Origin: a candidate division WOR-3 bacterium
GTDB lineage: Bacteria > Hydrothermota > Hydrothermia > B15-G9 > WFZT01
NCBI GenBank assembly: GCA_027053075.1
Contig: JALUEE010000047.1
Location: 11,155-75,154 of the forward strand
DNA: 64,000 bases
Reading direction: 5' to 3'
Shown here: piece by piece, positions 25,636-44,297 of the stretch
Position numbering within the stretch: the stretch's first letter is position 1
Layout: every line of letters starts with the position of its first letter
The notes under the pieces: model-generated
What the model was told of the DNA's origin: nothing
The model's input: only the letters and a program-made list of their open reading frames with translations
Databases searched by the model: none
Translations under genes and position numbers: made by a program

Positions 25636-25714
25636 TGGTCTATCTTCTCTGACTCATTGACCTTCTGAGATTGCTTTGAAGATAAAAAATTTTGGGATTT
25701 TGAAACGTCCTCCA

Positions 25715-25755
25715 CGCGGTTTTGCCCACAAACGAAGTTTGTGGGCAAAACCGCG
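25715..25755 (+). terminator. perfect 18-bp hairpin with CGAAG loop immediately after the terminal CRISPR repeat
   Basis: CGCGGTTTTGCCCACAAA-C-GAAG-TTTGTGGGCAAAACCGCG. It has no U-run, so it may act as a pre-crRNA 3' boundary or REP-like element rather than a classic terminator. Confidence 0.4.
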
Positions 25756-25849
25756 AAAATACATTCACCCCACCATCAAAAACTATCCCTTCCCATCCCT
25801 CCACCTCCAATTCTTGTTTGAAAGCTCCCCATTCGTTAGAATTTTCGAC

Positions 25850-27724: not shown

Positions 27725-28991
27725 AGACGACGCTGTATTATGCAAAACGCTCGCGAAGATCCTGAGAAAGTATCATCACGTGGATGCATTCACAGACTCT
27801 CAAAAAGCGCTAAACCACCTTTCGTCCACTACTTATGATGTAGTTCTAACAGATGTTCGTATGCCTGGAGTCTCTGGCATAGACATTTTACAGCATGTCA
27901 TGACTCATTCACCTGGCACGCATGTAATTTTATTTACGGGATACGGGACGGTTGATGAGGCGGTTCGTGCCATAAAAATGGGAGCATACGATTACATTCT
28001 GAAACCAATCGATACCACTTATCTCCTTTTGAAGCTTGAAAAGCTTGAAGAGATGAACTGCGATTTCCTTGCAAAATCTGAAGTCAATCTTGTGTATCAA
28101 AGTCAGGCAATGAAGTCCGTCGTGGATATGGCCCTCAAAGTGGCTCAAACTGATTCCACTGTGCTCCTAACTGGCGAAACCGGCGTGGGGAAAAATCTTG
28201 TTGCAAAACTCATTCATCTGAACAGCAAAAGGAAATCGAGGAAATTCCTCTCGTTTAACTGTGCGAATCTTCAGGAATCTCTCTTCGAGGGAGAATTATT
28301 TGGATATCGCAAGGGGGCATTTACGGGCGCAGTGAATGATAAAAAGGGCATTATCGAGCTTGCTCACAGGGGAACACTGGTGATTGACGAAATAACCGAA
28401 ATGCCAGTGAACATTCAGGCAAAATTTCTAAAATTCCTCGAGGAAAAGGCCTTTTTTAAGCTCGGAGATAATGAACAAACCCGGGTTGATGTTAGAATAA
28501 TTGCTATCACAAACAAAGACATTGAATCAATGGTGAAAAGTGGAAAGTTCAGGGAAGACCTGTTTTACAGAATAAATGTTTTCAGGATTCATATCCCACC
28601 TTTGAGGGATAGGAAAGAAGACATTCCTGTTCTTGCTCGCTATTTTCTTGATAAATTCAAAGAGATAAATCCAGGAATTACTGGAATTTCCGATGAAGCA
28701 ATGGAAAAGCTCATGGCCTACGATTACCCCGGGAATGTGCGGGAACTCTCAAACATCATTGAAAGGGCGATGATACTTTCGAGAAGTGAGAGGTGGATTC
28801 TTCCCCATCACATAACAACTCTTTTTGGCAGACCACAGGTAACGAACCTGAGTCTTGATGAGCTAACAAGACGACATATTTTATCGGTACTTCAATTTAC
28901 CGGAGGGGACAAATCAAAAGCCGCGAAGATACTTGGAATTGACCGCTCTACCCTGTACAGGAAGCTGAAGGAGTATGGGATAGAGGTATAG
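27705..28991 (+). CDS. sigma-54-dependent response regulator (NtrC family: REC, AAA+, HTH)
   Basis: The REC domain has DDAVL..D. Walker A is GETGVGKNL. The GAFTGA motif is present (GAFTGAV), along with ESELFGH-like EGELFGY and a C-terminal HTH. Confidence 0.85.
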   Translation: MKILLIEDDAVLCKTLAKILRKYHHVDAFTDSQKALNHLSSTTYDVVLTDVRMPGVSGIDILQHVMTHSPGTHVILFTGYGTVDEAVRAIKMGAYDYILKPIDTTYLLLKLEKLEEMNCDFLAKSEVNLVYQSQAMKSVVDMALKVAQTDSTVLLTGETGVGKNLVAKLIHLNSKRKSRKFLSFNCANLQESLFEGELFGYRKGAFTGAVNDKKGIIELAHRGTLVIDEITEMPVNIQAKFLKFLEEKAFFKLGDNEQTRVDVRIIAITNKDIESMVKSGKFREDLFYRINVFRIHIPPLRDRKEDIPVLARYFLDKFKEINPGITGISDEAMEKLMAYDYPGNVRELSNIIERAMILSRSERWILPHHITTLFGRPQVTNLSLDELTRRHILSVLQFTGGDKSKAAKILGIDRSTLYRKLKEYGIEV

Positions 28992-29876
28992 ATAGTCGGG
29001 AGTGACCAATTGAGTCTGTTCGAAAGTTCATTCTTTAATATCTACATTTGGGAAACAACTGAACCTAAGTTTCCTCTCTCCCACGCAGAGCGTGGGAGAG
29101 GGTTTTAAAAGGGTGACACTCCGCTTGAAGATTAGAAGTTTAGGATAACGATCTCATGTAGGGTTGAAAAGGGAGTTTGAATACTCATTTTATACGAAAA
29201 CTTTGAATTATGTTGCCCCTCTCCTTTTATCCTCTCCCCGCAAGTATTTATGCGGGGAGAGGAGTATTTTGCGTTTGGAAATATTCGGCTCCCAGGTCGA
29301 TTTTCGAAGGGCTTTAGGTAGGGGGTTACGTCAGAAACTTTCGAGTGTTATACTACGATAGAGTCATTAGACAGAAATCCTTAAATTCAATCTTTCATCA
29401 TTTCCTCCATCCCTGGGAATGAAATGGGCAGGGAGATTCCTCTTTAAATTCCAGATAAATTGAAATTCTTCGAACACACTTTGACCAATTAAATTTAGAA
29501 ATTTTTGCATTGATTATCGAGGCGTTCACTGATTCGGGATTGTTTAGAACAGAGTGGTAGGGTATGTAGAAACGTTATTGGTGCCGCCGCAAGCTTCGCT
29601 TGCGGCGGCACCAACAAAAAACGGCATTCCACTCGAATAGAATTTCTTAAACCCCACAAAAGATATTTTCCCCAACCAAAATCAAACCACCACTGATCAA
29701 CCTGGTCAGCTCTTTTATCTCCGAAAGTTTAGCCCTTTCAACTAACCCAAACTTTATCAGTTGCTTCTTGTGTAGATTGAGATATCTTTTTGTTGCATTC
29801 TGCGACATAATTGACACCAATCGTCTCATTTTAAGACTGATGGCATCCGAAATCCCCTAATTTACTTACAAAGCTG

Positions 29877-29892
29877 TGGCAGAAAAATTGCA
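29877..29892 (+). promoter_or_regulatory. sigma-54 promoter TGGCAG-N5-TTGCA upstream of the cytochrome gene
   Basis: It matches the -24 GG / -12 GC consensus (TGGCAC-N5-TTGCW). An AAGGAGG RBS lies ~17 nt downstream, and the ATG is at 29924. Confidence 0.65.
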
Positions 29893-29923
29893 TCTCACTC
29901 TCCGACAAAAGGAGGTGAAGTGT

Positions 29924-31837
29924 ATGAAAAAATTACTGGCCCTGTTATTAGTTTTTACCGTGCTACACGGCTATGATGCAAAATCTTCCTGCGTAAAGTG
30001 CCATTCCAATAAGGAGCTTCTGAAAAAACTCGGAGCTCCTCAAATGTACATGGACCCAGCACAGGTCGATAAGGAAGTCAATATGAACGGAGTTCCCAAA
30101 TGCGTTGACTGTCATCTTGGTAACAATAAAACCATGGACATGAAGAAAGCCCACAAAGGTATGCTGAAGCCATTCTACGCCGCCATCGGTAAAACCCTTA
30201 AATACCAGTATGTTGATCGAAGCGTTACCAACTACGATCGCATACTTCCAAAAGGGAAGAAAAGATTTAAAGTTCTCATGCGTAAGCCCACCTCTGAGGC
30301 AAAAAAGAAATACCACATCAAAAAACTCATGCAACTCTTTTATCATGACAGGGACACGGCAACATTTACATTTAACATAAAAATTGCCCAGAAGACCTGC
30401 GGAAAATGTCATTCAAAAGAGGTAAATGACTATAAGCACACCTCTATGGCACTTTCACTTTATCAAAGGGCATACACGGACTGGACAAAATCACCTCCAG
30501 GCCCTCAAAACTGCGGAGTCTGGTTTGCTGACAATTACCAGACAATAAAAGGAAAATGTACGAGAGATTACACAGAAAAAATGGCAAAATCAGCTACGAG
30601 GGGATGTAACAAGTGTCATACTTCATGTCTTGATTGCCATTATGCTGGATATAAAAAATCCGTGACAAGCCACAAATTCCTCTCAGAGCCAGAGCCTATG
30701 TCATGCTACGGTGGAGGGAGAGGAACCATCTGCCACGCAGGTCCAATGGATCGCCGTCGTGGTGCTGGTTATATGAGACAGGAGTTTGCTTTCCCGGTAG
30801 GAGAACTCCCAACCGACGTACATAATAAAAATGGTGTCACATGCCTCGATTGTCACGAGCCTCACAACCATGACTGGGGTCACCTTGCTTCAGCAACTGC
30901 ACGCAACTCCTGCTCAAAATGTCACGAGGAAATAGTTGATGCTGTTAAAACCGGCATTCACAAGAATGTTGACTGCACTGCGTGCCACATTCAAAAAGTC
31001 GGGGCCTATCAGTTCACATTTTGGGGCCCCGGAATATTTGTTGGCATGCCCAACGTTTTTACAAAGCACAAGCAGTATTACGGTGTGAGAAGTATGCCTC
31101 TACTCGTCAAACACCCGACGCGTAAAGTCTGGATACCGGTCAAACCCTATCCTATGGCCGTTATGAACATCTCCGAGGATGTGAAACCCACCGGACTTAT
31201 GGTAAGGTCTATTCCTGAGGAGAAAATTAAGGGACATCCCGAAGTTGGAGAGCCTAAATTTTTGAAAGTCAAGCGCTCACCAGACCAGATAAACGACATG
31301 TACATAATAACTGGCACGTTTGACGGGCTTAAGAAAAACAATAAAATGCTCGCATGGATTCAGATGGATAAGATGTCCCACGCTATCGGAAAGGGTAGAT
31401 CATGTCAGTCCTGCCACAGCTCTCACGATCAGGTTGCAACAACCTGGTACACTTATTCCAATATGAAGGATGTACAGAAGAAATTCAGCGGAAGTTATAT
31501 CGTGAAGGCAACAAAGGACGGCATCACTTTCAGTGGTTTTGAAAATCATACACCAATAATTCCAAAGCCGGGAAGAGATGTGGAAGATTTCGCTCCATTT
31601 TTAACACTTCCCAACGCCTGGAACGTGAGGGGAATCGACTTCTCCATACCGTTTGATGAAAAGAAATACGAAGCAGAGCTAAACAAATACAATATGATTT
31701 ACGCCGAAATCCACGCACTGAAGCTGAAATATGCAAAGGATGAGGCCAAACTCGAACAGCTGAATTTGATCAAAGCCATTCTCCCCCACAATCCCGAAAA
31801 AGCCCAACAGATGCTGAACGAGATGAAAAAGGGGTGA
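29924..31837 (+). CDS. secreted nonaheme c-type cytochrome
   Basis: A signal peptide (MKKLLALLLVFTVLHG) and nine CxxCH motifs are present. A C-terminal coiled-coil follows. Confidence 0.8.
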   Translation: MKKLLALLLVFTVLHGYDAKSSCVKCHSNKELLKKLGAPQMYMDPAQVDKEVNMNGVPKCVDCHLGNNKTMDMKKAHKGMLKPFYAAIGKTLKYQYVDRSVTNYDRILPKGKKRFKVLMRKPTSEAKKKYHIKKLMQLFYHDRDTATFTFNIKIAQKTCGKCHSKEVNDYKHTSMALSLYQRAYTDWTKSPPGPQNCGVWFADNYQTIKGKCTRDYTEKMAKSATRGCNKCHTSCLDCHYAGYKKSVTSHKFLSEPEPMSCYGGGRGTICHAGPMDRRRGAGYMRQEFAFPVGELPTDVHNKNGVTCLDCHEPHNHDWGHLASATARNSCSKCHEEIVDAVKTGIHKNVDCTACHIQKVGAYQFTFWGPGIFVGMPNVFTKHKQYYGVRSMPLLVKHPTRKVWIPVKPYPMAVMNISEDVKPTGLMVRSIPEEKIKGHPEVGEPKFLKVKRSPDQINDMYIITGTFDGLKKNNKMLAWIQMDKMSHAIGKGRSCQSCHSSHDQVATTWYTYSNMKDVQKKFSGSYIVKATKDGITFSGFENHTPIIPKPGRDVEDFAPFLTLPNAWNVRGIDFSIPFDEKKYEAELNKYNMIYAEIHALKLKYAKDEAKLEQLNLIKAILPHNPEKAQQMLNEMKKG

Positions 31838-31921
31838 AAACGGTGAGACGTAAGGAACGAATTGTGTTTTTTTATGTCTTGAAAGTTCAACGGGGCTAAA
31901 AATCTGATTTAAAGGGGAATA

Positions 31922-31950
31922 GGGGGGCGCCTCCTTCGGAGGCGCCCCCT
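31922..31950 (+). terminator. intrinsic terminator GGGGGGCGCCTCC-TTCG-GGAGGCGCCCCC plus a T-run
   Basis: It lies between the convergent cytochrome gene and the TM-CARF gene. A canonical U-run follows on the + strand. Confidence 0.7.
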
Positions 31951-32017
31951 AACTTTTTATCGGCATCTCACTGGCTCAAGTTATGGTTTTATTCAATGTG
32001 ATATCAAACATCTTCAT

Positions 32018-33040
32018 TTAATCAATGACAGGAATATCCATTTCAGTGACGTCAATTCTCACGAGACTTTTATCACCGGACTGTCTCACATACTCAGCCT
32101 GTCTATCTCCCACCACAGCCTCAAGAATCATTGCTGATGATACCATCGCGGTCCCACCGGTTATATTAAAACTAATATCGCTATCTTCATAATTTTTGAG
32201 ATTTTGCAGCAACCTATCTAATTCAATCTTAACGTCTCTGAAATCACTGACATCAACAACTCTGGACTTTTCTATGATCAAATCTCCCGTGGTAATTCTT
32301 TTTTCGAGATGTGGAATAACCTTCAGAAATTTTTCAAAATCAGCAAAATGTTCTTTTGCTTTCTCTGATAATATGACAATAACCCCTTCAAGAATGTGAT
32401 TTTCGTGTATAATTGCTCTCAACGCCGGTGTCCAGTTGCCGGGCAAGTCTTTTAAAGTTTCCTCTTTAGGTATTGCCGGGTTACCCAGTTGCCGTAATTT
32501 TTCTTGAAGAGATTGAATCTGTTCAAAGGGCTCACTGCTGGGCAAACTCAGTGCAAAGATAAGAACTTTTCTGGGGAGCGGTTTATCGTGGGCAGGTTTT
32601 TCTTTTGGCTCGAACAAACAATTGATGTATAGTAGAGGCAATAAAAACAGAAACAAGATTGCCAATATGAATGTCAGAATGTGATGCCAGAGTAAGCCCT
32701 TATTGTAATCCGGTGTTAAAACAAGTATCCCTGCATCCCTCACACTATCAAATACCCAGGAAATCTGGAATAAAACACTCAGGAAAATCCAGATGGACAG
32801 GTATCTATAAATTTTCTTTAACCCTTTTCGCGGTGGCTCTTTTAGAAAGTTACGAAGGGCATCTGTGAGGCCAATAGATTTGTCCTTATATTTATACATC
32901 AAGATGGTTATTGCTGAAATCAAAAGGATAATCAATAAAGTTTGGCCTAACGCCATAAAGGAGAGTATAAATGGGAAAACGCTTGAAAAGGCCAAAAGTG
33001 CAATTATGAACAGTATCTTTAAAAATTCCCTGAAGCTCAA
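32018..33040 (-). CDS. CRISPR-associated membrane protein: 4 N-terminal TM helices plus C-terminal CARF-like domain (Cam1-like architecture)
   Basis: TM helices lie at about residues 8-30, 33-49, 80-98 and 120-142. The C-terminal Rossmann-like domain has a beta1 motif KVLIFALSLPSSEP and the CARF signature NITGGTAMVSSAMILEA (compare DxTGGTK). It is the last gene of the cas operon and overlaps the upstream stop (ATGA). Confidence 0.5.
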   Translation of the reverse strand: MSFREFLKILFIIALLAFSSVFPFILSFMALGQTLLIILLISAITILMYKYKDKSIGLTDALRNFLKEPPRKGLKKIYRYLSIWIFLSVLFQISWVFDSVRDAGILVLTPDYNKGLLWHHILTFILAILFLFLLPLLYINCLFEPKEKPAHDKPLPRKVLIFALSLPSSEPFEQIQSLQEKLRQLGNPAIPKEETLKDLPGNWTPALRAIIHENHILEGVIVILSEKAKEHFADFEKFLKVIPHLEKRITTGDLIIEKSRVVDVSDFRDVKIELDRLLQNLKNYEDSDISFNITGGTAMVSSAMILEAVVGDRQAEYVRQSGDKSLVRIDVTEMDIPVID

Positions 33041-33042
33041 TT

Positions 33043-33429
33043 TTATATCCTTCTCATTTCTCTGAACTTTTCTCTGATGCTCTGGAGATTTATTATTTCT
33101 GCAACCTCAAATTTTGGAGGGGTAGAATTCGGAACCGGCTTCAATCTCACTACAGGTGGGAAATATCCCATCAAACCATGAAGTGCTGCAAGGAGGGTGA
33201 CAGCAATAAAATTAAAGGCTGGTGGAACTATTATAATCGGCCGTGTCTGCCACTCCTCAGGTGTCAGGTTACACGCCTCAATAAGATCTTTCACCTGCTC
33301 CTCAAAAGACTTTTCATTATCAAAAAACACTGGAATCTGCCTTATCTCCTCAATCTCCTCATCTATCAATTTCCTGATCTGCCCCACCTGCTCCTCAGTT
33401 AGTGGATGAGAAAAATTAAGCACGAGCAT
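33043..33429 (-). CDS. hypothetical 128-aa protein embedded in the type III cas operon
   Basis: It has no recognisable motif and is acidic at the N-terminus. It is translationally coupled to the TM-CARF gene. A 134-bp gap upstream could hold an internal promoter. Confidence 0.45.
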   Translation of the reverse strand: MLVLNFSHPLTEEQVGQIRKLIDEEIEEIRQIPVFFDNEKSFEEQVKDLIEACNLTPEEWQTRPIIIVPPAFNFIAVTLLAALHGLMGYFPPVVRLKPVPNSTPPKFEVAEIINLQSIREKFREMRRI

Positions 33430-33563
33430 GGTTACTTTAAAATTTTAAACACTCCATATCCCTGATTCCCTTTTGCTCCAACACCTATGTTTTCAAGGGC
33501 AAATTCGAGAAATCTTTATCCCAGAATATTGAAAAAGTATCTATAAAAATAACCTTCCCGTTA

Positions 33564-34421
33564 TTATGATTTAATTGGTCGCCATAAACCATTATCCAAT
33601 ATTTCAAAGTAAACATCTTGATCGCTATCCACCTTTGTTCCTGGTTTCCAAGTCAAGCCTTGTGTATAAATACGCTGTAAGTACCTGCCCTCCAAAACTT
33701 CAAAATCTCCTTTAAATTTGAAGTGCGGGTCTGGCATTATATGACCAAATGCTATATTGGATTTTATGCGTGGATTTGTATGATTCAGTTCCACTTCGTA
33801 ATCCAAAAAACGAGAAGCTTCCGGATGTTTCACGAGTTCAATATGACCAAATCCGTAGCGGGTATCTGCTCCTACCATCAGTTTCTTTATTGAGAAAACT
33901 TGGTTTTGAACACTCTCATCGGCAATAAACACATACCCCACCATGAACATCTCGGGAGGTGGATAATGGTTACTAATTTGCCAATAAGGTTGAATGCACT
34001 CTAATTCGCGAAGTGTCCCTTCCTCAGCACTATCTGATTTGGGATCAATGGATGTGGAGGGAAACGAATACAGAATTTTTGATTTGAAGTCTCTGTTTGG
34101 CTTATCATCATTTGGAGTGTCTTCCCTTTTCCAAACGAGTCCATCAGAGTATTCTGAATACCACATAGCGTATTCATCGCCAATTTTTTCGGCTGGGAAC
34201 AGATAGGAAAATCGGACATTTTGTAGCAAATTTTCACCAATCGAAATATAATCCGGGAAACTACTTCCTGCCGTATCCCGTGATAACTCGGCTGTTAATG
34301 CTCCCCAAATTGTCCTTGCTGGTATGTATAAGCGGGTTCTGTTCAAAATTCCTGCTGGTGCCGTGCCGATATTTATGGGTGATTTTACCTTCCAGACCCA
34401 TCGGAACATCTTCCATGCCAT
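33564..34421 (-). CDS. cmr3: Cmr3-like (Cas5 group) subunit
   Basis: The N-terminal motif YIPARTIWGAL is present (compare IPGSS.kGAL), as is the G-rich loop GADTRYGFGHIE. Confidence 0.7.
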   Translation of the reverse strand: MAWKMFRWVWKVKSPINIGTAPAGILNRTRLYIPARTIWGALTAELSRDTAGSSFPDYISIGENLLQNVRFSYLFPAEKIGDEYAMWYSEYSDGLVWKREDTPNDDKPNRDFKSKILYSFPSTSIDPKSDSAEEGTLRELECIQPYWQISNHYPPPEMFMVGYVFIADESVQNQVFSIKKLMVGADTRYGFGHIELVKHPEASRFLDYEVELNHTNPRIKSNIAFGHIMPDPHFKFKGDFEVLEGRYLQRIYTQGLTWKPGTKVDSDQDVYFEILDNGLWRPIKS

Positions 34422-34427
34422 AATTTC

Positions 34428-34781
34428 TCACCCCTGTTTGGCCTTCAAGTGATAACGAGCATACGAGAATGCGGTGCGTAGAAGGTCTCGAGCAAAAAGT
34501 AAATCATCTAAATCTTTGGAGTTTGCTAAGAGCTTTATTGCTTCCAAAATATCGTCCGTAGTATCCAAGCGATTTCCGAAAATGGTCTTGAGAAATTGCA
34601 GAGATTCCGATCTAACCTCTTTAGCTACATTGTTATTCTTGGCCTTGAGATATAGAAACATCGCATACGGGCCTTGCTCTTCCAAAACAGTCAAGGCCTC
34701 GTTGACAAGATTTTCATCTATGCCAGAAATCTGGGCTATCTCACGGCCCAATTCGGCACACTGAATGTCCAAATTTTTCAT
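34428..34781 (-). CDS. cmr5: Cas11 small subunit (Cmr5-like)
   Basis: It is an alpha-helical protein of about 118 aa that follows cmr4. The MKNLDIQ start was chosen to avoid an 80-bp overlap with cmr4; the ORF-track start is 34904. Confidence 0.55.
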   Translation of the reverse strand: MKNLDIQCAELGREIAQISGIDENLVNEALTVLEEQGPYAMFLYLKAKNNNVAKEVRSESLQFLKTIFGNRLDTTDDILEAIKLLANSKDLDDLLFARDLLRTAFSYARYHLKAKQG

Positions 34782-34824
34782 TTGAGCTTCACTCACGGCT
34801 TTCCTCCTCGTTTGGTTCAGAGGC

Positions 34825-35856
34825 CTATGACGGATTAGATTGTCTCTGAGCGGGTTCAACGCAATCAATATCTTGGGTTCCGGGCGATTCATTCTCATGC
34901 ACAACTTCTACGCGTCCCATGCCTCGAGTGCCCATGCCGCCGATGCCCAAGTGTTTGAGATAGGGGTGAGCCTGGTGGGTTACCTCATGCACCCTTTCTG
35001 GAGAATACATTCGCTGACCACCATCCAGAATGACGCCTATCTCCTGTCCACCTATTCTAAAATGCTGAGGATTCTTTGCGATAATTTCCCACACCAGGAC
35101 CGTGGATCGAGGCAGGGCTTCGTAAGAGAAGAGAGCCCTTTCTTCGGCAGCACCAGTTTCGGGATTGATGGAAACCGAGGTGCGCACTTCCAAATTGCTG
35201 TTGACGATGTGGGCGAAGAGGCGGTCAGGCACCAAAGCAAGGCGGTTTTGGATGTAATCTGGGATACCCAGGCCTTGCAATTTAGTTTTAATATCATTCA
35301 TTTGGGCACACGCTTGCACAGGCAGCAATAACCAACCCAAGTTAAGAGGGTTGCCCGAGTTTGATTCAAGGTAAACGGCATTTTCCTCCACCCCCTGCAC
35401 ATTCAAACCTATAAAACGCAAGGTCTGAGGTGCAGTCACCCACATGGGGCCTTGACGGGTAGCGACAGGGAAGAGCAGCAAATGGACATCAGTAAAGGCG
35501 GCCAAGCCTGCAAAACCGCCTTCCTGCCCTGCACCACGGGCGAAACCAAAGACAGTGCAAACGGGACAGTCAGGTTGGCGACAATGCCCATGATCCGCAT
35601 CCAGCCCTAACCCGGCGCAATCGGGGTAAAAAGGTTTATCTCGGTTCGGAAATTGTGCTGTCCGATTTTCTTCAAAATACATCGCCACATAGGCCCGATA
35701 CACTCCAGCTAAGCTGGACCCAGGAATTTTAGGCACCTGGGTGACCGGGTCGCGCACAATAGTCAAATCTACCCGACCGATGCGGGTCCCACCGGTGCCC
35801 ACATGAATAGGGTCCAGAGCCAGACCAACCTGCAAGAATTTTTTGTAACTAGACAT
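34825..35856 (-). CDS. cmr4: Cas7 backbone subunit (Cmr4-like) with CxxC..CxxC insert
   Basis: The N-terminus is LALDPIHVGTGG...RDPVTQVPKIPGSSLAGVYR, followed by a zinc-finger-like segment CRQPDCPVCTVFG. Confidence 0.7.
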   Translation of the reverse strand: MSSYKKFLQVGLALDPIHVGTGGTRIGRVDLTIVRDPVTQVPKIPGSSLAGVYRAYVAMYFEENRTAQFPNRDKPFYPDCAGLGLDADHGHCRQPDCPVCTVFGFARGAGQEGGFAGLAAFTDVHLLLFPVATRQGPMWVTAPQTLRFIGLNVQGVEENAVYLESNSGNPLNLGWLLLPVQACAQMNDIKTKLQGLGIPDYIQNRLALVPDRLFAHIVNSNLEVRTSVSINPETGAAEERALFSYEALPRSTVLVWEIIAKNPQHFRIGGQEIGVILDGGQRMYSPERVHEVTHQAHPYLKHLGIGGMGTRGMGRVEVVHENESPGTQDIDCVEPAQRQSNPS

Positions 35857-35869
35857 TATTTACCTCCTT

Positions 35870-38800
35870 TCAAACATTTTCTTTAAGGACTATTGTATGC
35901 CAATCTATCGCCCATTGGAGTAATCTCTGTTGGGCAGAGTCTATGAGGGTTTCAAGTGCTGTGCCCCTGACCTCTAAATGGTGCACAAGCATGGCACGGA
36001 GAGTATCTTCCCACAAATCTTTTGAAACGGCTCGTTGCCCCTCGGGTGTTTGCCATTCCTTTTCCAAACGCCCAAGTTCTGTTCTAAATCTCTGAAGAGC
36101 CGTTTGGCTTGGGACAACTTTCTTTAATAGGTTCCATATTTCGCGCATTTGCTCCCAATCTTCCAAGTAATGTAAATCTGGGTTAGAGAAGCGAGCGGAG
36201 GTGCTTCCCATGAAGAGGATGGTTACACGCGCTGTGGATACTTTTACACCATCACCTGGACGAAGGTCCGATACATGACGGTAAACACGGCCATCCTTTG
36301 GATGGCGAAAATCTCGGGGAAAACGAAGTTGTCGATCCTCAATTACCATGTAAGGATAGAACACATCATCTCGCCCATCAGGCATAGCAGTAGGCACTAT
36401 CTTTAAGATGCTCTTGCCGTCTTCCAGTTTTAAGCGGAGGACTACCACACCTGCTTGTCGTTCCACTTCTTCCACCTGCCATGTTTCCTCCTCTCCTTTC
36501 AGTTCTTCTTCCATTTTACGTGTTGCTCCGATCACGGCCTGATAGGGCAACATTCGAGGGAATGCGACCACGCCTATCCGTAAAGGAAGCCGATCCCACA
36601 CGCGGGAGAAGTGTTCCTTCCACCAGGAAACAGCTATATCCACACATTCGGAGGCCGCTTCCAATGGCACCAGCACCCGAAAACGAAGTGGAGAGACTTC
36701 TACCGGAATGACCGGGTGATACAAGCTCAAGTGCGCATGAGGCTGACGCAGCTCATTCACATGGGTAACAGTCATAGGACGCTCCTGACCAAAGGTATCT
36801 TCTTCTTCCAGCCTAATTTGAGCACCCTGAAAGGAACTCGATTGCTCTTCTGGCCGTAGCAATCTACCCAGATTGGAAGCCGTCACAAAACCTCCCAGGC
36901 TACGCACATAGACCAGGCTAATCTGCCGACCTTCCCAACGGCCATTGTAAAGGGTCAGGTCTCGCCAATCGTTATTGTCGTCTGGAACCAACACCAAGCG
37001 TCGGACACGCCAGCAATTTTCGCTGCGAGCCGCTATCTGCCGAAATTCCTTCAGCAAGTCATGGAAGAACTCCTCGGCCTCCCGCCAGAAGCGATAGACA
37101 CGGCCAGGTGAGGGAAGCTTGCGGAAGAGTTGATGCGCAAGCCAAGCAGCTCGCTGGTCGTCATTCAAGATACCCCATGTAGGTGCATCGGTACGATCCT
37201 CTACAATTTTACGGAAAAAAGTTGGCCAGTCATTTTCATACTTGTAACCCTCTTGAAGGTTGGCAAGCAATTGGTCGTTTTTATCGAATTTAAAATGCTG
37301 TGGATTTTGTGGATCGCGAAACCTTTGTTTTAGCTCGTCAATCAGCTTATCCATAGAGCCTGTGGGGGCAATAGGATTAGGTTGACCTGAAAGGACCAGG
37401 TTAAATCTCACCCACTCCGGTATTGCTTGTACCCGCAGGCTATCCACACGGCTGCCATTGAGCCAATCTTCAAGGTCCAGTGAGAATGTTAGCAAAGCCA
37501 GGCGGCCGTTGCGGTCAGCCACCTCCTCGAACCAGATGGTGTCGTAATCCAGTTGCCCCTGAAGCCATGCATCTCTTCGATGGTGGCGCCGCTCGCGGCA
37601 TACCGCGCATGGCTTACCCTTGTTGGTGGGATCACCGTTTAGTCGCACACGGCAGACGGGACACACATGACCACGCGTCTCTGAAGGAGCCCTCCAATGA
37701 ACATCCCACTGCTTGTGAACAGGGACGGCCACTACCAGCTTGGACTCTTTAAGCTCCCTAACAATGGGTACCAATGAACGGGTCGGCTTACTCAGGCGCA
37801 CAAAGGGCGGGGTTTCCAGTTCCAGATTACGGGCGATTTCTTCTACTTGATCTTGGAGCCATCCATTCCATCCTCGGAGCCGGGATGCGAAGTTCTCTTC
37901 ATCAAACTCAAAATTCGGATCTCTCCGTCTTTGACGTTCCTGTTCTTCTTCATCGAATCTCTCGCCGGGAAAAGAAAACACGGCCATGCTGCTGTCTCGA
38001 TAAAGCAAAGAGCCTGCAGCAATGTCCACCTCCACCAATTCAGCTACACGACGGAAAAATTCGTCAATGGCACCTTGAGCACCTGTCCAGTCACCAATTT
38101 TTACCGCGCGGGCTTCGTAGTGCTCGGTCCCAAGGGCGATAGTGAGCAGGCGCCAGCGGGTATTGCTTTTGGTAAAATTATTGATAGCCAATTTCTCATC
38201 TTTCGATAGGTCATCGAAGGACTTCTCTTTTCCTTTCTTTGTTCTAAGGTTTATACCCAATTTGGTAGCTATGCTCTTCCAGTTCCAAGGAAAACCCTTA
38301 TCGAGCAACGCCCCAGCCACCGCGCTCTTAAATAGAGCCGCAGCCACATAGGACTGGTCCCACAAGGTAACATCGTTGTTGGGCAAACGCGTCTCGGCTA
38401 AGGTGGACATAAAAGCTCTTCGGACAAAAGATTTTTCTCCGATAGCTCTATTCCGCCAGTCTTGCCAATGAGCTACATCTGACACACCTCTGGTTCCTAA
38501 GTCCCGCAACTCCTCCAAAACTCGCCGGATTTCTCCCACCAATTGCTGCCAGCCCTGTGGAGTCAATAGTTCAGGTGGATTGGCCAGCAGGTTACGCTTT
38601 GGGTGGCCCCAAGGTGAGGAAAGCCACATGTGAGGAATGGTTTGCTTAAGATAATCTGAGGTAGAAGTAGGAAGGTTTTTCTCGACGCCAGAGACAATAC
38701 CATGTCCTGCTTGGAGTAATCCCAAAAGACCAGGGTTACGTCCTGCATGTTGTTCAATAAACGTAGAAAAAGAACCTGGCCATGCATTATTGGGTATTCC

Positions 38801-39028
38801 ACTCCCGTATAGCCGTTTTACCCATTCTAATAAGGTATCCCATGGAAAAGGTGGCGTTTCCAAATCATGCCAATGTCGTTCATCGTAGCCGTTGTTCTCG
38901 CCACCATGACGGCGTAAAAATTCAATTCGTGCCTTTCCAGCCATGTGAAACCACCCAATGGCCTCCATTGCTAAGAGTAAAGGGCGATGTTGCCGTAAAG
39001 TCTCAGCCGGTGAGAAAGTGCTGCTCAT
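35870..39028 (-). CDS. cas10: Cas10 large subunit: HD-like N-terminus, treble-clef Zn finger, palm domains without a GGDD cyclase motif
   Basis: - It is ~1050 aa.
- There is a possible HD motif (H..RHWHD).
- The zinc finger is CPVCRVRLNGDPTNKGKPCAVCRER.
- The palm beta1-like segment is LALLTFSLDLEDW.
- No GGDD/GGDE/GDD occurs anywhere in the protein.
- A start at 39028 gives a 4-bp overlap with the cmr6 stop. Confidence 0.65.
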   Translation of the reverse strand: MSSTFSPAETLRQHRPLLLAMEAIGWFHMAGKARIEFLRRHGGENNGYDERHWHDLETPPFPWDTLLEWVKRLYGSGIPNNAWPGSFSTFIEQHAGRNPGLLGLLQAGHGIVSGVEKNLPTSTSDYLKQTIPHMWLSSPWGHPKRNLLANPPELLTPQGWQQLVGEIRRVLEELRDLGTRGVSDVAHWQDWRNRAIGEKSFVRRAFMSTLAETRLPNNDVTLWDQSYVAAALFKSAVAGALLDKGFPWNWKSIATKLGINLRTKKGKEKSFDDLSKDEKLAINNFTKSNTRWRLLTIALGTEHYEARAVKIGDWTGAQGAIDEFFRRVAELVEVDIAAGSLLYRDSSMAVFSFPGERFDEEEQERQRRRDPNFEFDEENFASRLRGWNGWLQDQVEEIARNLELETPPFVRLSKPTRSLVPIVRELKESKLVVAVPVHKQWDVHWRAPSETRGHVCPVCRVRLNGDPTNKGKPCAVCRERRHHRRDAWLQGQLDYDTIWFEEVADRNGRLALLTFSLDLEDWLNGSRVDSLRVQAIPEWVRFNLVLSGQPNPIAPTGSMDKLIDELKQRFRDPQNPQHFKFDKNDQLLANLQEGYKYENDWPTFFRKIVEDRTDAPTWGILNDDQRAAWLAHQLFRKLPSPGRVYRFWREAEEFFHDLLKEFRQIAARSENCWRVRRLVLVPDDNNDWRDLTLYNGRWEGRQISLVYVRSLGGFVTASNLGRLLRPEEQSSSFQGAQIRLEEEDTFGQERPMTVTHVNELRQPHAHLSLYHPVIPVEVSPLRFRVLVPLEAASECVDIAVSWWKEHFSRVWDRLPLRIGVVAFPRMLPYQAVIGATRKMEEELKGEEETWQVEEVERQAGVVVLRLKLEDGKSILKIVPTAMPDGRDDVFYPYMVIEDRQLRFPRDFRHPKDGRVYRHVSDLRPGDGVKVSTARVTILFMGSTSARFSNPDLHYLEDWEQMREIWNLLKKVVPSQTALQRFRTELGRLEKEWQTPEGQRAVSKDLWEDTLRAMLVHHLEVRGTALETLIDSAQQRLLQWAIDWHTIVLKENV

Positions 39029-40044
39029 GGCGTACCTCCTTTGGTTAGCCAGTTTTGAACTTCCTGCCAGAGTTCGTCGCGAGTATCCTTTTCCACGCTG
39101 CCATGAGTTTTGTGGAAAGCGCGCCACTTTTTGATTTCCGCTGTGCCCCAGCCCACAGTGCGCTTGGCGGAGATCCCATAGGGAGTAAGCAAAGTTTCAA
39201 TAGCTTCAAGCAGTTTTGGGAGTACATCCACAGGTTTTGCCTCTGGCTCCATACCGGGCCAGGGCGCGTAAAGTAATGAAAGTGTTCCTTCGGCTCCCTC
39301 AACTTCCTCTCTTTCTTGGGTTCCATCAGACTTTTTCTTCACCTGTATCGTCCGTCCAGGAACCACTTCATAGTAAATAGGTTGGGTGCCAGCGCGATTG
39401 GTACGACTATGTGGGTTGATGACCTCGAAGCCGATCTTGTTGAACCACGTGGGGTAGAAGACCAGAGCGCCCTGGTGGAAGTTTTTCTCTTCCTTCTTCT
39501 CGTTACCAAAGAGATGCTGAATCCAGTCCGGATCCCACCAGCCATCTATTTTGCCATTGTGTTGTTCCAGATATTCCATCAGTCCTTCGTGCATTCTACA
39601 GGCCCATCGCAGCATGCCTTTACAAGAGGAAGCCGCCATAAATGGCACGCCAAAGACCCGGTCTTTACGCACAGGGTTGTCCATCACATGGAAAATTCGG
39701 TCATCACGGGAATACCAGGGAGTGAGTAGTTCAAAATCCACCTGAAGAGCAAGCCAACGATCAGATAATAGCGTGGAAAAGTCAATTTGTAGTCCTGGAT
39801 ACAACTTGACCGGGAATCTCCGAGGCACTTTTCCCATGTATTCCTTACGGAGCCTCGTTTTCTCCCGCTCCGCCTGACGTTTTCCCTGTCTGTCATTTGT
39901 CTTTTCCGCTTCTAATCGCTTGATTTCAGTCTTCAAGAAGCATTTGAAAATATGATCGATAAAACCTCCGGCCAGCCTCCAAGCCACCGGAGTGTTTTCC
40001 AATGGTTCGCAAGTCTCAAGAAAGATGAAGTAATCCCAAGTCAT
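39025..40044 (-). CDS. cmr6: Cas7 family subunit (Cmr6-like)
   Basis: Motifs GVPFMAASSCKGMLRW and HLFGNEKKEEKNFHQGALVFYPTWF are present, with a C-terminal G-rich loop GWGTAEI. Confidence 0.65.
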   Translation of the reverse strand: MTWDYFIFLETCEPLENTPVAWRLAGGFIDHIFKCFLKTEIKRLEAEKTNDRQGKRQAEREKTRLRKEYMGKVPRRFPVKLYPGLQIDFSTLLSDRWLALQVDFELLTPWYSRDDRIFHVMDNPVRKDRVFGVPFMAASSCKGMLRWACRMHEGLMEYLEQHNGKIDGWWDPDWIQHLFGNEKKEEKNFHQGALVFYPTWFNKIGFEVINPHSRTNRAGTQPIYYEVVPGRTIQVKKKSDGTQEREEVEGAEGTLSLLYAPWPGMEPEAKPVDVLPKLLEAIETLLTPYGISAKRTVGWGTAEIKKWRAFHKTHGSVEKDTRDELWQEVQNWLTKGGTP

Positions 40045-41267
40045 GAATTTTCCTCCTGTTTGAACAATCGTTCCATAATTTGCTCTCCTGTAATGAAATC
40101 CTCATTCGGATTAAAGTCCTGCCAAATTTGCCCCAAGCGGCGCTTCATTTCTTCAAAATCCACTAAACCCGGCTTCACAAAGCCAAAGGTGCGGCGTGCT
40201 TCTTCTGGATGTTCGAAACTGAACACTTTTTTGCTTACCTGTTGACTACCCGCAAGCCAGTGATTAACCTCGTTATCTCGCCAGAAGTTCTGCGCTTGGT
40301 TCTTCCGCATATTCCTTCCAATGACAAGATTATATGTACTTTTGGTGAACGATTGCCTTGCCAGATACCGTCCTTTCACGAACCAGAAGTTTTGCAACGA
40401 GGCCCAGGCAAAATCTTGGTCGTTAAAGCTCTTTCGCCACCGTTCCTGTTTTACATATGCTTCTGCTTGCTGCAGAGTGCAGCCAACTCCTTGAGGCCGC
40501 TCCTCAACCGTGATGAGCCCGAAATCCTGATGGTGTCTCTTTCCGGCCCAAGCATTGATCTCCCGAGTTTCATTGTCCCTTCGCACTTTGATTTTGAGAG
40601 GTTCACCATGCGGTTTTCCACTAAGGAGGTTTTCAAGGTCAAGAAGACGAGTCACCAATGTGCTATCAACTTCCAGGATTACATCGCCTTCTTGTAACTG
40701 GAGCCCCCGCCGACTGTGTCGCACTTTTATCTGCCCGCTTGAATCGTCCAGATCATCGGCGCCAAGATCAGCGATTCCCCATTCATCTGACGGCTTGAAC
40801 ACCGTTTTCCCACCCAAGGCCCCGTATTCGGCAATAAGGTGGATGGTTGCATCCAGCAGACACCATTCTTCTGGATGAATAGGTCGCAAAGGGATGAAGC
40901 GTAGGATAAAAATATTACTCCCGTTGTCGTCATTATCTACCTTGATCTGATTTTGGATGACCTTTTTTCCATATTTGTCCACCACCATAAGCCGGAACTT
41001 GCGTGCCCAACCAGTGCAACCGAAAAGTTCACAAACCACGCAATGGTGGCCAGGTTCATGTGGCTGTTTGTTAGGAGCTGGGCAACGAATTTCCGACGCC
41101 GTCGGGTCACAAGCCTTCCCACCCAATCCTCGAACTAACACCTCGAACCACCAGCGAAGTGAACCCATTATACCGGTCAAGATCGTTCTTTCCCCACGCC
41201 TTGAAGCATCCCCTGTGAATATCGGGGTTAGCGCTTTTAACTTCCATTCCTCCCATTCTTTACTCAT
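40041..41267 (-). CDS. cmr1: Cmr1-like RAMP (Cas7 group) with Zn finger and an inserted PDZ-like domain
   Basis: - The RAMP N-terminus is LTPIFTGDA...GSLRWWFEVLVRG.
- The zinc finger is CPAPN..HHCVVCELFGCTGW.
- The first G-rich loop is GALGGKT.
- Residues ~165-240, GLQLQEGDVILEVDSTLVTRLLDLENLLSGKPHGEPLKIKVRRD, align with the PDZ core (GL.aGDvI..vnG..v.s...l...l.....G..l.l.v.R). Confidence 0.6.
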   Translation of the reverse strand: MSKEWEEWKLKALTPIFTGDASRRGERTILTGIMGSLRWWFEVLVRGLGGKACDPTASEIRCPAPNKQPHEPGHHCVVCELFGCTGWARKFRLMVVDKYGKKVIQNQIKVDNDDNGSNIFILRFIPLRPIHPEEWCLLDATIHLIAEYGALGGKTVFKPSDEWGIADLGADDLDDSSGQIKVRHSRRGLQLQEGDVILEVDSTLVTRLLDLENLLSGKPHGEPLKIKVRRDNETREINAWAGKRHHQDFGLITVEERPQGVGCTLQQAEAYVKQERWRKSFNDQDFAWASLQNFWFVKGRYLARQSFTKSTYNLVIGRNMRKNQAQNFWRDNEVNHWLAGSQQVSKKVFSFEHPEEARRTFGFVKPGLVDFEEMKRRLGQIWQDFNPNEDFITGEQIMERLFKQEENS

Positions 41268-41506
41268 TAGGATATCTCCATTTTTAAAATAACCTGTAAG
41301 GACAAGAGAATAACGGTTTCATCAGGAAATAAGCATTTCGGGTATAGGGAATCATGGCTGTAGAAATTCAAGAGATAAAAAGTCTCTGTGAACCAGAATC
41401 TCATTGCGCCTCTTATCGAGGCGGGGCGGAGTTCGGGCTCACCCTCTGGGTCAGCTCCGCCCATAAACATTGGGGTTAAGACTTTTAGTTTGAAGGTGGT
41501 TTTCAT
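41267..41506 (-). pseudogene. 79-aa ORF consisting of a Cmr1-type RAMP N-terminal motif followed by unrelated sequence; probable duplicated/decayed cmr1 fragment
   Basis: The first half of LTPMFMGGADPEGEPELRPASIRGAMRFWF is a textbook Cmr1 N-terminus. No continuation exists in any frame. It has its own GGAGG RBS, and its stop overlaps the start of the full-length cmr1. Confidence 0.45.
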
Positions 41507-41543
41507 AGTCCCTCCTTACCCATTCGCAAAGAATGGGATTTTG

Positions 41544-42302
41544 TTAATCCTTATTTCTCACCACTTCGATCATGCCGAAGCCCTGGCTGTTTTTGGCTCC
41601 CAGGCCCGCATTGTAAGCAAGCATAAACCAGGGCTCGGGCAGGCTTAATTCATATATTCCTACCCAACCCTTAACAATGACGCCTTTAAACTTCGTTATT
41701 ATCTCGTTGTGCTTCTTAACCTTTACGGGCTTTATATACCCCTCAATTGGTGGGATGTCGTTTTTGGAGAAGTAAGCTTTGGCCTTGCGACGGAGGTTAT
41801 CAAAGATCAATTCTTCAAATTCTTTCTCGAAGGGACTAAAGTAATAGGTCTTTCTCTGTCCATCGGACGTGTATAAAGTTCGATAAACTGTTATCGGAGA
41901 GATTGCTTTAATTTTCATAGGTCCCGAGAGTTTGAAAGGTCTCTCAACCTCAATTGATACGAGATTGCATTTAGCTGAGCCGATTCTTACCACCCCTTCC
42001 TTAACCAGTGTAGCTGCGAAAGATTCGAGAATCTCAATATCAACAGATGAAATCTTAAACCAAACTCGCCCCTCAAAAATCAGCTTTTTGCTTATCGGAT
42101 CATACCTTCTATTTTCACCGAAGAGTCTTGAGAAGGTGTATAACTTGAATCTTCTCTTTCCAAATTGGTAGCCTTCATCATGTACCCATTCAGCGAGCTT
42201 CTCTTTGATGTTGTTGAGGATAAAACTCTGGATGATGTGGTTGTAATTGACGGAGATTCTAAGGATTCCGTTCTCTGGCTCAAATTTTACAATTAATCTC
42301 AA
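41544..42302 (-). CDS. cas6: Cas6 pre-crRNA endoribonuclease
   Basis: The C-terminal G-rich loop is GLGAKNSQGFGMIE, and the size (252 aa) fits. It uses a TTG start with an AGGAGG RBS. It is the first gene of the operon, below a 340-bp AT-rich promoter region. Confidence 0.85.
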   Translation of the reverse strand: MRLIVKFEPENGILRISVNYNHIIQSFILNNIKEKLAEWVHDEGYQFGKRRFKLYTFSRLFGENRRYDPISKKLIFEGRVWFKISSVDIEILESFAATLVKEGVVRIGSAKCNLVSIEVERPFKLSGPMKIKAISPITVYRTLYTSDGQRKTYYFSPFEKEFEELIFDNLRRKAKAYFSKNDIPPIEGYIKPVKVKKHNEIITKFKGVIVKGWVGIYELSLPEPWFMLAYNAGLGAKNSQGFGMIEVVRNKD

Positions 42303-42644
42303 AACATCCTCCTACTTGAAACCTATTTTAATAGTTCGTTAACCGTACTTGCAAGTAGCAGGATGACATCGTTGTGAAAAGTTATAAATTGCTGGTTTTG
42401 TAGAGATTCTCCATGCGCACGAAGTGGGGGAAAATTTATCAATATATTTCAAAGCTTAGCGCTTTATAGTGATCGATAATTCCTATTATTCAAACAAGTT
42501 TGATAACGAGTGGACTTTTATGCAAGAAGGCGAATATAATTTCAGTTTGAAATTGTGTTGGGTAAAGGATGCTTTGAATGTAAACTTACCCTTCATAAGC
42601 GTGTATAGGAAAAAATCCCGCGCTGCGGGATAGGAGGTTGTCAG

Positions 42645-44297
42645 ATGAAAAAATTGTTGCCGGTAATATTATTGGTGAGTACACTATGGAGTTACAAATA
42701 TGCAGTGGTAATAAAGGGGTCAACTTACAGCAACGATCCTGGGTGGAGGGCAGTTGCGGACACGCTCATAAATAGACATAACGGCAGGCTTTTTACATGG
42801 ACATCAAGGGTAACCGATGTGCAGGATTCGTTGAGTGCCTACATGCCTGATTACATTGCCTTTATTGCCAGACCGGTTATTGAACTGAACGCAAATTTTG
42901 TCAGAACCGTATCCACAATGACAAGGGAATTGGACGATGACCCCTACGGAGATGCTATCTGGGGAATTGTAACAGGATTTTATGCGGATGATGCCATTCG
43001 TGCAGTGACAGTTGATAGTTTAAGAGTAAAAAGCCTTCTCGGTGGGTTTATCGGCTATACCGGACTTGTCCATCAATCCATTACCACCTCAGTCTCCCAG
43101 CATCACAGAATTGTATTTACTTTTCCTGATAGGGCCGTAATTGATACTGTTGCAAGTGACCTGTGTCCCACGGACAGAACATATATGCTTGCAGGATATT
43201 TGAATAACGGATTCAACGATTCATTACCGGGTCATCCACGCATTGAGGGACCTGTGGATATGTTTGTAACTTCAGGGCATGCCAATGTAGATGTCTGGCA
43301 ATTGCATTATCCTGATCCGGACGATGAAGGATACTTCCGGTCAAGATTCCCTGGCCAGCTTTATGGTGCTCCCCACAGTGGAGCAGATACTTTAATAAAT
43401 TCTACCAATCCCAAAGTCTATTATGCCCCGGGGAATTGTTTGATAGCAAATCCAAGTATGTATGACAACATGGTTTATGCCTGGTTCCACACGGGCGGGG
43501 CAATCCAGATGATAGGCTACATAGTGGTAACATGGTATGGATACATGGGATGGGGAGTTGGATCATATTTCTTTCAATCTCAGGGAGACTATACCCTTCA
43601 GGAATCATTTTTCGCCAACAATCAGTCCCTTGTTTATGATTTACTCCACGGTACTCCGGGCACTGATTCATCGGGTCTGGCTTATGATAAGGACGCAGTG
43701 GTAATATATGGCGATCCTGCGCAACCTGTGAGACTTTATCCGGTAAGATCACCCCTCTACTCTCAGAGTTTAACTGTCCGTCACGGTTCAACAAGAGATA
43801 CTTTCGAATACAGAATTACGGTTAATTACGACAGCACCGCTTTAAGCAGACATCCTATTGGATTCCTGCCCTACAGGATTGACAGCGTCCAAATATTAGA
43901 AACTAACGCTGTTGATGCCGTTGTAACAGATAACTTTGTGATGCTGCACTGCTGGCATTCGGGAATGCAAAGACTGAGTGCGGGTGATCAGAGGTACGTA
44001 ATATTTACCGGTAAACGAATACCCACACAGGTACAGGAGACACCGGAACCTGTTCAAATTGATTTCCCTTCAATGGTTACGGGTGAATACTTAACCATTA
44101 GATTCGGAAACGTTAGTCAGGGACCCTGGCAACTCAGTGTGTACGGGTTAGATGGACGTAAAATCCTTAGTCAAAGGTTATTACCCAATAGTGGCACTCG
44201 CTTCACTTTGCCATGGAACCTGCCCGCTGGAGTTTACTTTGTGAGGATTTACTCAAACACTACAGGAGTGATGAAAAGGGTAATAGTTGTTAGGTAA
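42645..44297 (+). CDS. secreted protein, possibly a cysteine peptidase (C25/gingipain-like), with T9SS-type C-terminal domain
   Basis: A signal peptide is present, and the C-terminal tail (GVYFVRIYSNTTGVMKRVIVVR) resembles the other two sorting tails. The peptidase assignment is weak. Confidence 0.35.
   Translation: MKKLLPVILLVSTLWSYKYAVVIKGSTYSNDPGWRAVADTLINRHNGRLFTWTSRVTDVQDSLSAYMPDYIAFIARPVIELNANFVRTVSTMTRELDDDPYGDAIWGIVTGFYADDAIRAVTVDSLRVKSLLGGFIGYTGLVHQSITTSVSQHHRIVFTFPDRAVIDTVASDLCPTDRTYMLAGYLNNGFNDSLPGHPRIEGPVDMFVTSGHANVDVWQLHYPDPDDEGYFRSRFPGQLYGAPHSGADTLINSTNPKVYYAPGNCLIANPSMYDNMVYAWFHTGGAIQMIGYIVVTWYGYMGWGVGSYFFQSQGDYTLQESFFANNQSLVYDLLHGTPGTDSSGLAYDKDAVVIYGDPAQPVRLYPVRSPLYSQSLTVRHGSTRDTFEYRITVNYDSTALSRHPIGFLPYRIDSVQILETNAVDAVVTDNFVMLHCWHSGMQRLSAGDQRYVIFTGKRIPTQVQETPEPVQIDFPSMVTGEYLTIRFGNVSQGPWQLSVYGLDGRKILSQRLLPNSGTRFTLPWNLPAGVYFVRIYSNTTGVMKRVIVVR

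Follow-up and report, generated by a model that had tools for sequence, protein, structure and literature searches.

A PDZ domain between the RRM halves of a type III-C Cmr1 subunit, and its possible role as an optional adaptor

Introduction

What would a PDZ domain of the kind carried by HtrA-type proteases be doing inside the Cmr1 subunit of a CRISPR effector complex? The question is raised by a 64,000-nucleotide stretch of DNA from a candidate division WOR-3 bacterium (assembly GCA_027053075.1, contig JALUEE010000047.1, positions 11,155 to 75,154 of the forward strand; hereafter the window), which holds a type III-C locus with the gene order cas6, cmr1-PDZ, cmr6, cas10c/csx11, cmr4, cmr5 and cmr3. 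Our analysis indicates that its cmr1 gene (40041-41267, minus strand; an open reading frame of 408 codons plus stop) almost certainly encodes a type III-C Cmr1 with a complete, minimal HtrA-type PDZ domain of 82 residues inserted between its RRM domains. As to what the domain does, we tentatively favour, at a probability of roughly 40%, a facultative adaptor at the Cmr1 end of the complex that would bind a peptide of some protein encoded outside the operon.

Type III-C systems are common and their mechanism is poorly understood, and a peptide-binding domain in the target-capturing subunit offers a handle on whether III-C complexes signal via proteins. We found no description of a PDZ domain in Cmr1 or in any other type III subunit in the full-text literature searched, and the principal surveys of accessory proteins in type III systems that we consulted make no mention of the domain. 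A first-pass annotation of this DNA, made from its letters alone, had stated that it knew of no PDZ domain described in a Cas7-family protein, and for Cmr1 and the type III subunits the literature searched agrees. Joint matches to RAMPs and PDZ_2 are already present in public databases, in proteins plainly named 'Cmr1'.

A Cmr1 protein with a PDZ domain in its central loop

The 408-residue protein is recognised as a Cmr1 by the NCBIfam model TIGR01894 (59.6 bits, cut-off 28.65) and by the PADLOC Cmr1 profile (E-value, E, of 5e-13), and Pfam RAMPs matches its residues 9-155 (E 5e-21). Its predicted structure has the two-RRM-domain fold of solved Cmr1 proteins. On the minus strand, the N-terminal RAMP/RRM domain (residues 1-162; 40782-41267) is defined by invariant or near-invariant columns in an alignment of 66 homologs, and the C-terminal Cmr1 domain (residues 245-408; 40044-40535) starts at the conserved HHQDFGL strand. 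Between them lies the insert, W163 to R244 (40536-40781), delimited by the alignment boundaries, the PDZ_2 match, a profile comparison with the PDB and structural models. The GSLRWWF motif (residues 35-41) and the G-rich loops GALGGK (149-154) and FGF (361-363) are invariant or nearly so in the same alignment. The first-pass annotation had listed this motif and these loops together with a CxxC..CxxC finger; the motif and the loops stand, but the cysteine cluster of the N domain (C53-x8-C62 ... C76-x2-C79-x4-C84) contains a single CxxC. The sole PDB sequence match to the cluster region, a gRAMP-like RAMP protein, shares its C-x2-C-x2-FG-x-TGW pattern. Cmr1 binds both the target RNA and the CRISPR RNA (crRNA) and helps target capture (PMC5737701); we infer, other than by alignment, that the RWWF motif here may be the equivalent of the Cmr1 region discussed for this activity.

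The first-pass annotation had placed a PDZ-like domain at residues 165-240 of this protein (40548-40775, minus strand), where the peptide that it quoted, GLQLQEGDVILEVDSTLVTRLLDLENLLSGKPHGEPLKIKVRRD, is indeed found. Its reading of the segment as a PDZ is borne out by an above-threshold Pfam match, a profile match to the PDB and a fold match, and only the extent needs adjustment, since the true boundaries of the insert are W163 and R244. Pfam PDZ_2 (PF13180) matches residues 190-238 with an E of 9.7e-8 and a score of 32.6 bits that exceeds its gathering cut-off (27), so that the profile check suggested at first pass comes out significant; weaker PDZ_6 and PDZ_Tricorn matches overlap this segment, and the HtrA, DegP, SpoIVB and RseP models of NCBIfam match it weakly. 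Because PDZ_2 exceeds its cut-off and Cmr1 and HtrA-type NCBIfam models match as well, the first-pass observation is real and no chance resemblance. PDZ_2 is matched individually by 50 of the 52 insert-bearing homologs (best E 6.3e-11), and a sequence profile of the insert alone retrieves 43 PDZ chains from the PDB at E <= 0.01 (best 8.8e-10). Against 1.84 billion representative proteins the same profile behaves as a generic PDZ (9573 matches), and the list is dominated by multi-PDZ proteins with summed scores; among its top 150, PDZ-bearing Cmr1 proteins make up only about three 50%-identity clusters, and it gives no hint of a donor of the domain. A search of the 5.8 billion proteins with the 83-residue insert by itself returned no homologs, the word index having supplied a single candidate.

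Structural models point the same way. The AlphaFold2 model of the full-length protein, made from the 66-sequence alignment, has a predicted local distance difference test score (pLDDT) of 90.6 and a predicted template modelling score (pTM) of 0.89, with the insert at pLDDT 95-98; modelled alone, the insert reaches 79.6. In a Foldseek search with the insert-only model the top 50 matches are all PDZ-containing, almost all of them HtrA/CtpA-type proteases, and typically superpose over about 70 residues at 2.0-2.5 Å with a probability of 1.0. The structure prediction proposed at first pass thus yields a PDZ fold, a five- to six-stranded beta-sandwich with an alphaB helix that resembles the PDZ domains of HtrA, DegP, DegS and CtpA. 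The predicted order of elements is that of bacterial HtrA-type PDZ domains: strand I165-L168, strand I180-V182, the GLxxGD segment 188-195, strand 196-200, helix 208-215 and strands 223-230 and 233-241. The conserved W163-G164-I165 (PGL in other members) is a candidate for the Phi-G-Phi of a carboxylate-binding loop ahead of the ligand-pairing strand: it stands at the expected spot, where a DegP-like PDZ2 also aligns, although the Pfam match begins only at profile position 29. This candidate motif and the GLxxGD and HG motifs are conserved across the 52 insert-bearing sequences, which, like the constraint on the insert described below, speaks for a function.

With the PDZ domains of the HtrA family (DegP, DegQ, DegS and HtrA), CtpA and RseP the insert shares the fold, GLxxGD, the vI..vnG strand, the alphaB helix and the final beta-hairpin. 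It differs from these protease domains in having no attached protease and in lying within a ribonucleoprotein subunit that is presumably cytoplasmic; it is also minimal (about 80 residues), has a shortened, strongly acidic beta1-beta2 hairpin, and is inserted in a loop rather than appended. The basic loop of the domain carries an Arg-rich expansion (RVRLRVRRRRRGRRG) in one homolog (P0008), where its charge reaches +11.

An alignment of 52 long and 14 short members shows that the 82 residues take the place of a 7-residue loop, PGRENVL, that joins the two RRM halves of Cmr1: short members read KPSDE-PGRENVL-HHxDFGL, and long members have the 82 residues between KPSDE and HHxDFGL. The comparison is plainest with the PDZ-less III-C Cmr1 of Thermus thermophilus (P0099, 329 residues), which is about 64% identical to the window protein outside the insert and has the same GSLRWWF helix, cysteine cluster, G-rich loops and operon order (cmr1-cmr6-cas10c-cmr4-cmr5-cmr3), but has PGRENVL where the window protein has its PDZ. 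Such close relatives, with a 7-residue loop at the exact site, are a natural control that makes a clean deletion or swap of the domain easy to design. The type III-B Cmr1 proteins of Pyrococcus furiosus and Archaeoglobus fulgidus (PDB 4w8z and 4l6u) have no PDZ and are 14-17% identical to the window protein. The PDB holds no solved structure for this Cas10c or a close Cmr1, and we found no paper on a solved III-C structure.

Distribution and evolution of the insert

Among 5.8 billion proteins searched, 1776 homologs were found, the best 120 of which were inspected for length and for precomputed PDZ_2 matches. About half of these 120 are some 400 residues long, most of them with PDZ_2, and the rest are about 320-340 residues long and have no PDZ match. 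The long, PDZ-bearing form occurs in Rhodothermus profundi, Brockia lithotrophica, Thermanaeromonas, Bellilinea and a Methanomethyliaceae archaeon, and the short form in T. thermophilus, for example; outside the insert the two forms are 60-80% identical. This survey, which the first-pass annotation had proposed, reveals that the PDZ-bearing Cmr1 is not unique to the window but is an optional module found in 50 or more homologs. Among the best 80 of 348 relatives from GTDB species representatives, it is borne only by four loci (L001-L004).

In a neighbour-joining tree of the non-insert columns, made without bootstrap and with a PDZ-less sample biased to the top matches of a PDZ-bearing query, proteins with and without the domain are interleaved, and for most PDZ-less proteins the nearest neighbour by flank identity is a PDZ-bearing one (up to 81-82%). 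A PDZ-bearing clade of single origin was rejected on these two grounds. Because the two forms interleave among close relatives, the PDZ is best described as a conserved yet facultative module that has repeatedly been gained, lost or exchanged. Mean pairwise identity among PDZ-bearing members is 0.46 in the insert, 0.70 in the N domain and 0.54 in the C domain, a level at which the insert is judged to be under constraint. It is intact in all 52 insert-bearing sequences, which come from bacteria and an archaeal metagenome-assembled genome (MAG), and no frameshifted or decayed copies were seen. The distances of the N and C domains are only weakly correlated (Spearman 0.35), which points to mosaic evolution of Cmr1.

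Other parts of the protein also vary. Residues 109-117 of the window Cmr1 (about 40917-40943, minus strand) form a private small acidic insertion, VDNDDNGSN, in an N-domain loop that is without it elsewhere in the family; at the same site the Cmr1 of another locus (L010) has a DEKSR repeat. The C-terminal domain of the family has an optional Cys-rich insert of about 20-25 residues (C-x2-C ... C, for example KRCKNCGRVHLPGQRCPKT), and a second optional insert, LRDGDGNGRxPDP, occurs near the C-terminus. The presence of these last two is independent of the PDZ in the alignment (loci L002, L005, L017 and L025; proteins P0007, P0040, P0013, P0016 and P0099). The Cmr1 gene looks like a mosaic of swappable modules.

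What the PDZ domain may do

Because Cmr1 is placed at the crRNA-3' end of Cmr complexes, where it would aid the capture of target RNA, the PDZ would be displayed on the distal Cmr1 'head' of the complex. There, in the adaptor reading that we favour, it would grip the C-terminal tail or a beta-strand of a host or phage protein from outside the operon, and the partner so held would add a protein-level link to the complex, be it recruitment, localisation or regulation. The analysis establishes what the domain is, where it sits, the type of the locus, the loss of the catalytic motifs from Cas10 and the facultative distribution. That the groove binds a peptide, which ligand it takes and what binding brings about are all things that we infer.

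A partner was looked for in the neighbourhood of four PDZ-bearing operons, those of the window (L081), Brockia (L082), a Bellilinea MAG (L083) and a metagenome (L084); for the latter three the sequence read extends at least 6.5 kb to either side. The operons are flanked by unrelated genes, belonging to housekeeping functions, a two-component system or another defence island; a further PDZ-bearing locus (L001) has the same six effector genes on a short contig that ends at both operon edges. No protease gene was found in or beside the window locus or the other three. Csx15, labelled a 'peptidase' in PADLOC and in PMC6546367, occurs in the window locus only, in its low-GC, putatively relic part. 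The first-pass annotation had suggested that the domain could recruit a protease by analogy to Craspase, or tether the complex to an envelope protein: the gene context gives no backing to the former, there being neither a protease nor TPR-CHAT at the PDZ-bearing loci examined, and nothing points to the latter. Craspase (the III-E gRAMP/Cas7-11 with the TPR-CHAT protease Csx29) does resemble the present system in being a type III RNA-guided effector with a protein-protein interface for a non-nuclease output, but the window system is a multi-subunit complex rather than a fused gRAMP, and its interaction module is built into a subunit. The Cmr-beta complex of Sulfolobus islandicus (PDB 6s6b), a III-B complex with an active Cas10, is decorated by extra Cmr7 subunits; its decoration is a separate subunit and not a PDZ. 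Catalytically active Cas10 is a general property of III-B complexes.

In the Bellilinea locus (L083, 1093-9980) the PDZ-bearing operon directly follows a trio of genes for an SNF2 helicase, a DUF1156 methyltransferase and a DUF499 protein, and lies near an IS605 OrfB/TnpB gene. The trio appears to be another defence system, which would put the operon in a defence island.

The C-terminal tails of the subunits are the same in PDZ-bearing and PDZ-less loci: ...WLxxGGTP in the Cmr6-like protein, ...LKE-x-V/L/M in Cas10c and ...HLKAKGG.. in Cmr5. The conserved Cas10c tail resembles a class III PDZ ligand but was not adopted as one, as it is found equally in PDZ-less loci and, in the known Cmr architecture, lies at the opposite end of the complex from Cmr1.

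Several of our results count against the adaptor. No conserved extra gene is shared by the four PDZ-bearing loci beyond the six effector genes, and the operon content, the lengths of the subunits and their C-terminal tails do not differ between PDZ-bearing and close PDZ-less loci, so that nothing co-varies with the insert. The Pfam match spans only positions 29-77 of the 80 in the profile, and for the N-terminal strands and the binding loop the assignment comes from structure prediction and a single HMMER alignment. The presence of the domain also varies among relatives with up to 82% flank identity; being sporadic among close relatives it must be dispensable for core function, which argues against its being the main output of the system and makes it unlikely to be the sole one.

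The domain could instead be a brace within the complex, binding a neighbouring subunit (the Cmr6-like protein, or the terminal Cmr5 or Cmr4) and stabilising the Cmr1 head, for example in heat, with nothing external recruited, an explanation that we consider possible but rather doubtful. It would suit the lack of a partner gene inside or adjoining the PDZ-bearing operons examined, and the pTM of 0.89 together with the rise in pLDDT from 79.6 for the isolated domain to 95-98 in context suggests a fixed packing on the body of Cmr1, although this gain may stem only from the deeper alignment (66 vs 33 sequences). The conserved flexible tail of the Cmr6-like subunit and the end of the Cmr5-like one would be candidates for the bound segment, but PDZ-less loci have identical tails, with no co-variation with the insert, and a C-terminal proline as in GGTP makes a poor PDZ ligand. 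Many PDZ-bearing hosts are thermophiles or hot-spring MAGs (Rhodothermus, Brockia, Thermanaeromonas and KatS3mg bins); thermophiles such as T. thermophilus (P0099), however, carry PDZ-less versions too. Should the PDZ be only a structural brace, the finding would shrink to a minor example of how Cas7-family proteins evolve by modules. We find it unlikely that the insert acts as a lid on the RNA path, touching the 3' end of the crRNA or the 5' part of the target and tuning target capture or release without binding any peptide. Its site between two RRM domains of a subunit that binds target RNA and crRNA (PMC5737701) would fit such a role, as would the consistently basic loop 180-192 (mean charge +3.9, and as much as +11 in P0008), but the neighbouring hairpin 166-179 has a strongly negative charge (mean -4.6), the insert as a whole carries a net charge of about 0, and the putative Phi-G-Phi peptide-binding motif is kept. 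PDZ domains are, moreover, not established as RNA binders.

Very unlikely, in our judgement, is a functionless passenger, that is, a tolerated insertion with no selected role that is drifting and being lost. Sporadic occurrence among close relatives and an evolution faster than that of the RAMP core (identity 0.46 vs 0.70 and 0.54) would be expected of it, but the domain is intact in every insert-bearing sequence, from bacteria to the archaeal MAG, with conserved signature motifs and junctions, a fold predicted at high confidence and no frameshifted or decayed versions. The adaptor could also take a more elaborate form, in which the groove would open or close as target RNA binds to the Cmr1 head, so that the complex captures or releases the C-terminal end of some host or phage protein whose gene lies elsewhere. 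This RNA-gated version we hold to be quite unlikely. If true, it would give a protein output to a III-C complex without cyclase or HD activity, the captured protein being perhaps a toxin or protease, a factor of the sigma or anti-sigma kind, or a structural protein of a phage, and would amount to a Craspase-like protein switch made from a different module.

The III-C locus and its surroundings

All genes of the locus are on the minus strand. Upstream of cmr1 are cas6 (41544-42302; TIGR01877 E 9.9e-37, Pfam Cas_Cas6_C and Cas6_I-A) and a 79-residue open reading frame (41267-41506) that matches the PADLOC Cmr1 profile over residues 3-40 (E 3e-12). Downstream follow the gene for the Cmr6-like RAMP subunit (39025-40044; 339 residues; PADLOC Cmr6 E 2e-62 and Pfam RAMPs), which has the same position in more than 70 related loci, and that for the large subunit Cas10c/Csx11 (35870-39028; 1052 residues; TIGR02682 Csx11 285.1 bits, cut-off 248.95; PADLOC Cas10c CAS-III-C E 5e-115). 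Next come the genes for the Cmr4 backbone RAMP subunit (34825-35856; TIGR02580 113.6 bits, cut-off 87; PADLOC Cmr4 E 8e-47), the 122-residue small subunit Cmr5 (34428-34796; PADLOC Cmr5 'CAS-III-C; effector_SS' E 4.8e-30) and the Cas5-group subunit Cmr3 (33564-34421; PADLOC Cmr3 E 7e-73), and then csx15 (33043-33429; NF040560 E 2e-49) and a gene for a CARF protein with two transmembrane segments (32018-33040; PADLOC CARF_2M E 1.4e-23). The six-gene order from cmr1 to cmr3 is the same in every sufficiently long locus among the 80 related ones taken from GTDB species representatives, and the order cmr1, cmr6, cas10, cmr4, cmr5, cmr3 is typical of III-C in the 2015 classification.

An alignment of 52 Cas10c homologs shows HM at the HD position in 50 of them and HN and HQ in the remaining two, and a YRDxx-type sequence at the GGDD position in all 52; the window protein reads HM and YRDSS. 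In line with this, the polymerase of III-C systems has been described as inactivated (PMC8730458; PMC3150331); III-C loci are reported to lack cyclase sites and to have no known effectors, and only half of III-C systems have a recognisable HD nuclease domain (PMC11229360). As the window Cas10c is without the HD and cyclase catalytic motifs, RNA cleavage by Cmr4 is the sole predicted enzymatic output of the complex. Across highly diverse bacteria, Cas10c keeps the motif GW(L/F)HMxGKA nearly unchanged, and likewise a second block, NNDVTLWDQSYVAAALFKSAVAG. Because the surroundings of the motif are so conserved, the 'inactivated' HD region probably still has some role.

The 79-residue reading frame between cas6 and cmr1 begins with 40 or so residues (MKTTFKLKVLTPMFMGGADPEGEPELRPASIRGAMRFWF) that belong to the N-terminus of a different Cmr1, after which all similarity ends. 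In a profile over 31000-43500, the G+C content is about 0.39 in cas6, rises to 0.47-0.56 between cmr1 and cmr4, and is 0.34-0.45 in the CARF gene and csx15. Composition and gene content make it look as if a III-C cassette had been swapped into the interior of an older Cmr locus. Csx15 and the CARF protein are encoded directly downstream of a Cas10 without cyclase motif, leaving the CARF protein with no obvious source of cyclic oligoadenylate in the locus; it may have been left over from the system that was replaced, or a further type III system elsewhere may supply it.

A CRISPR array of about 20 copies of the 30-nucleotide repeat GTTCCGATCCTACCTACGAGGCATGGAAAT (24349-25638, no strand assigned; repeat families D1 and D2) is the likely source of the crRNA; the cas-associated gene closest to it, the CARF gene (32018-33040), is some 6.4 kb away. 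The intervening DNA holds three genes: 25676-27724 encodes a sensor histidine kinase, 27705-28991 a sigma-54-dependent response regulator and 29876-31837 a multihaem cytochrome. Neither cas1 nor cas2 was found among the window genes examined, a scan that did not take in the open reading frames elsewhere in the window. Just upstream of the array, 23654-24037 holds degenerate repeats, namely four diverged 30-nucleotide copies (GAATTAAATCCAGCTCT...CAC) at a spacing of 65-75 nucleotides, together with two copies of a palindromic 36-nucleotide unit, CCCTCCCCCACTTGCxCTGCAAGTGGxGGAG, and is overlapped by a 123-residue open reading frame. This cluster may be what remains of an array belonging to a different CRISPR type.

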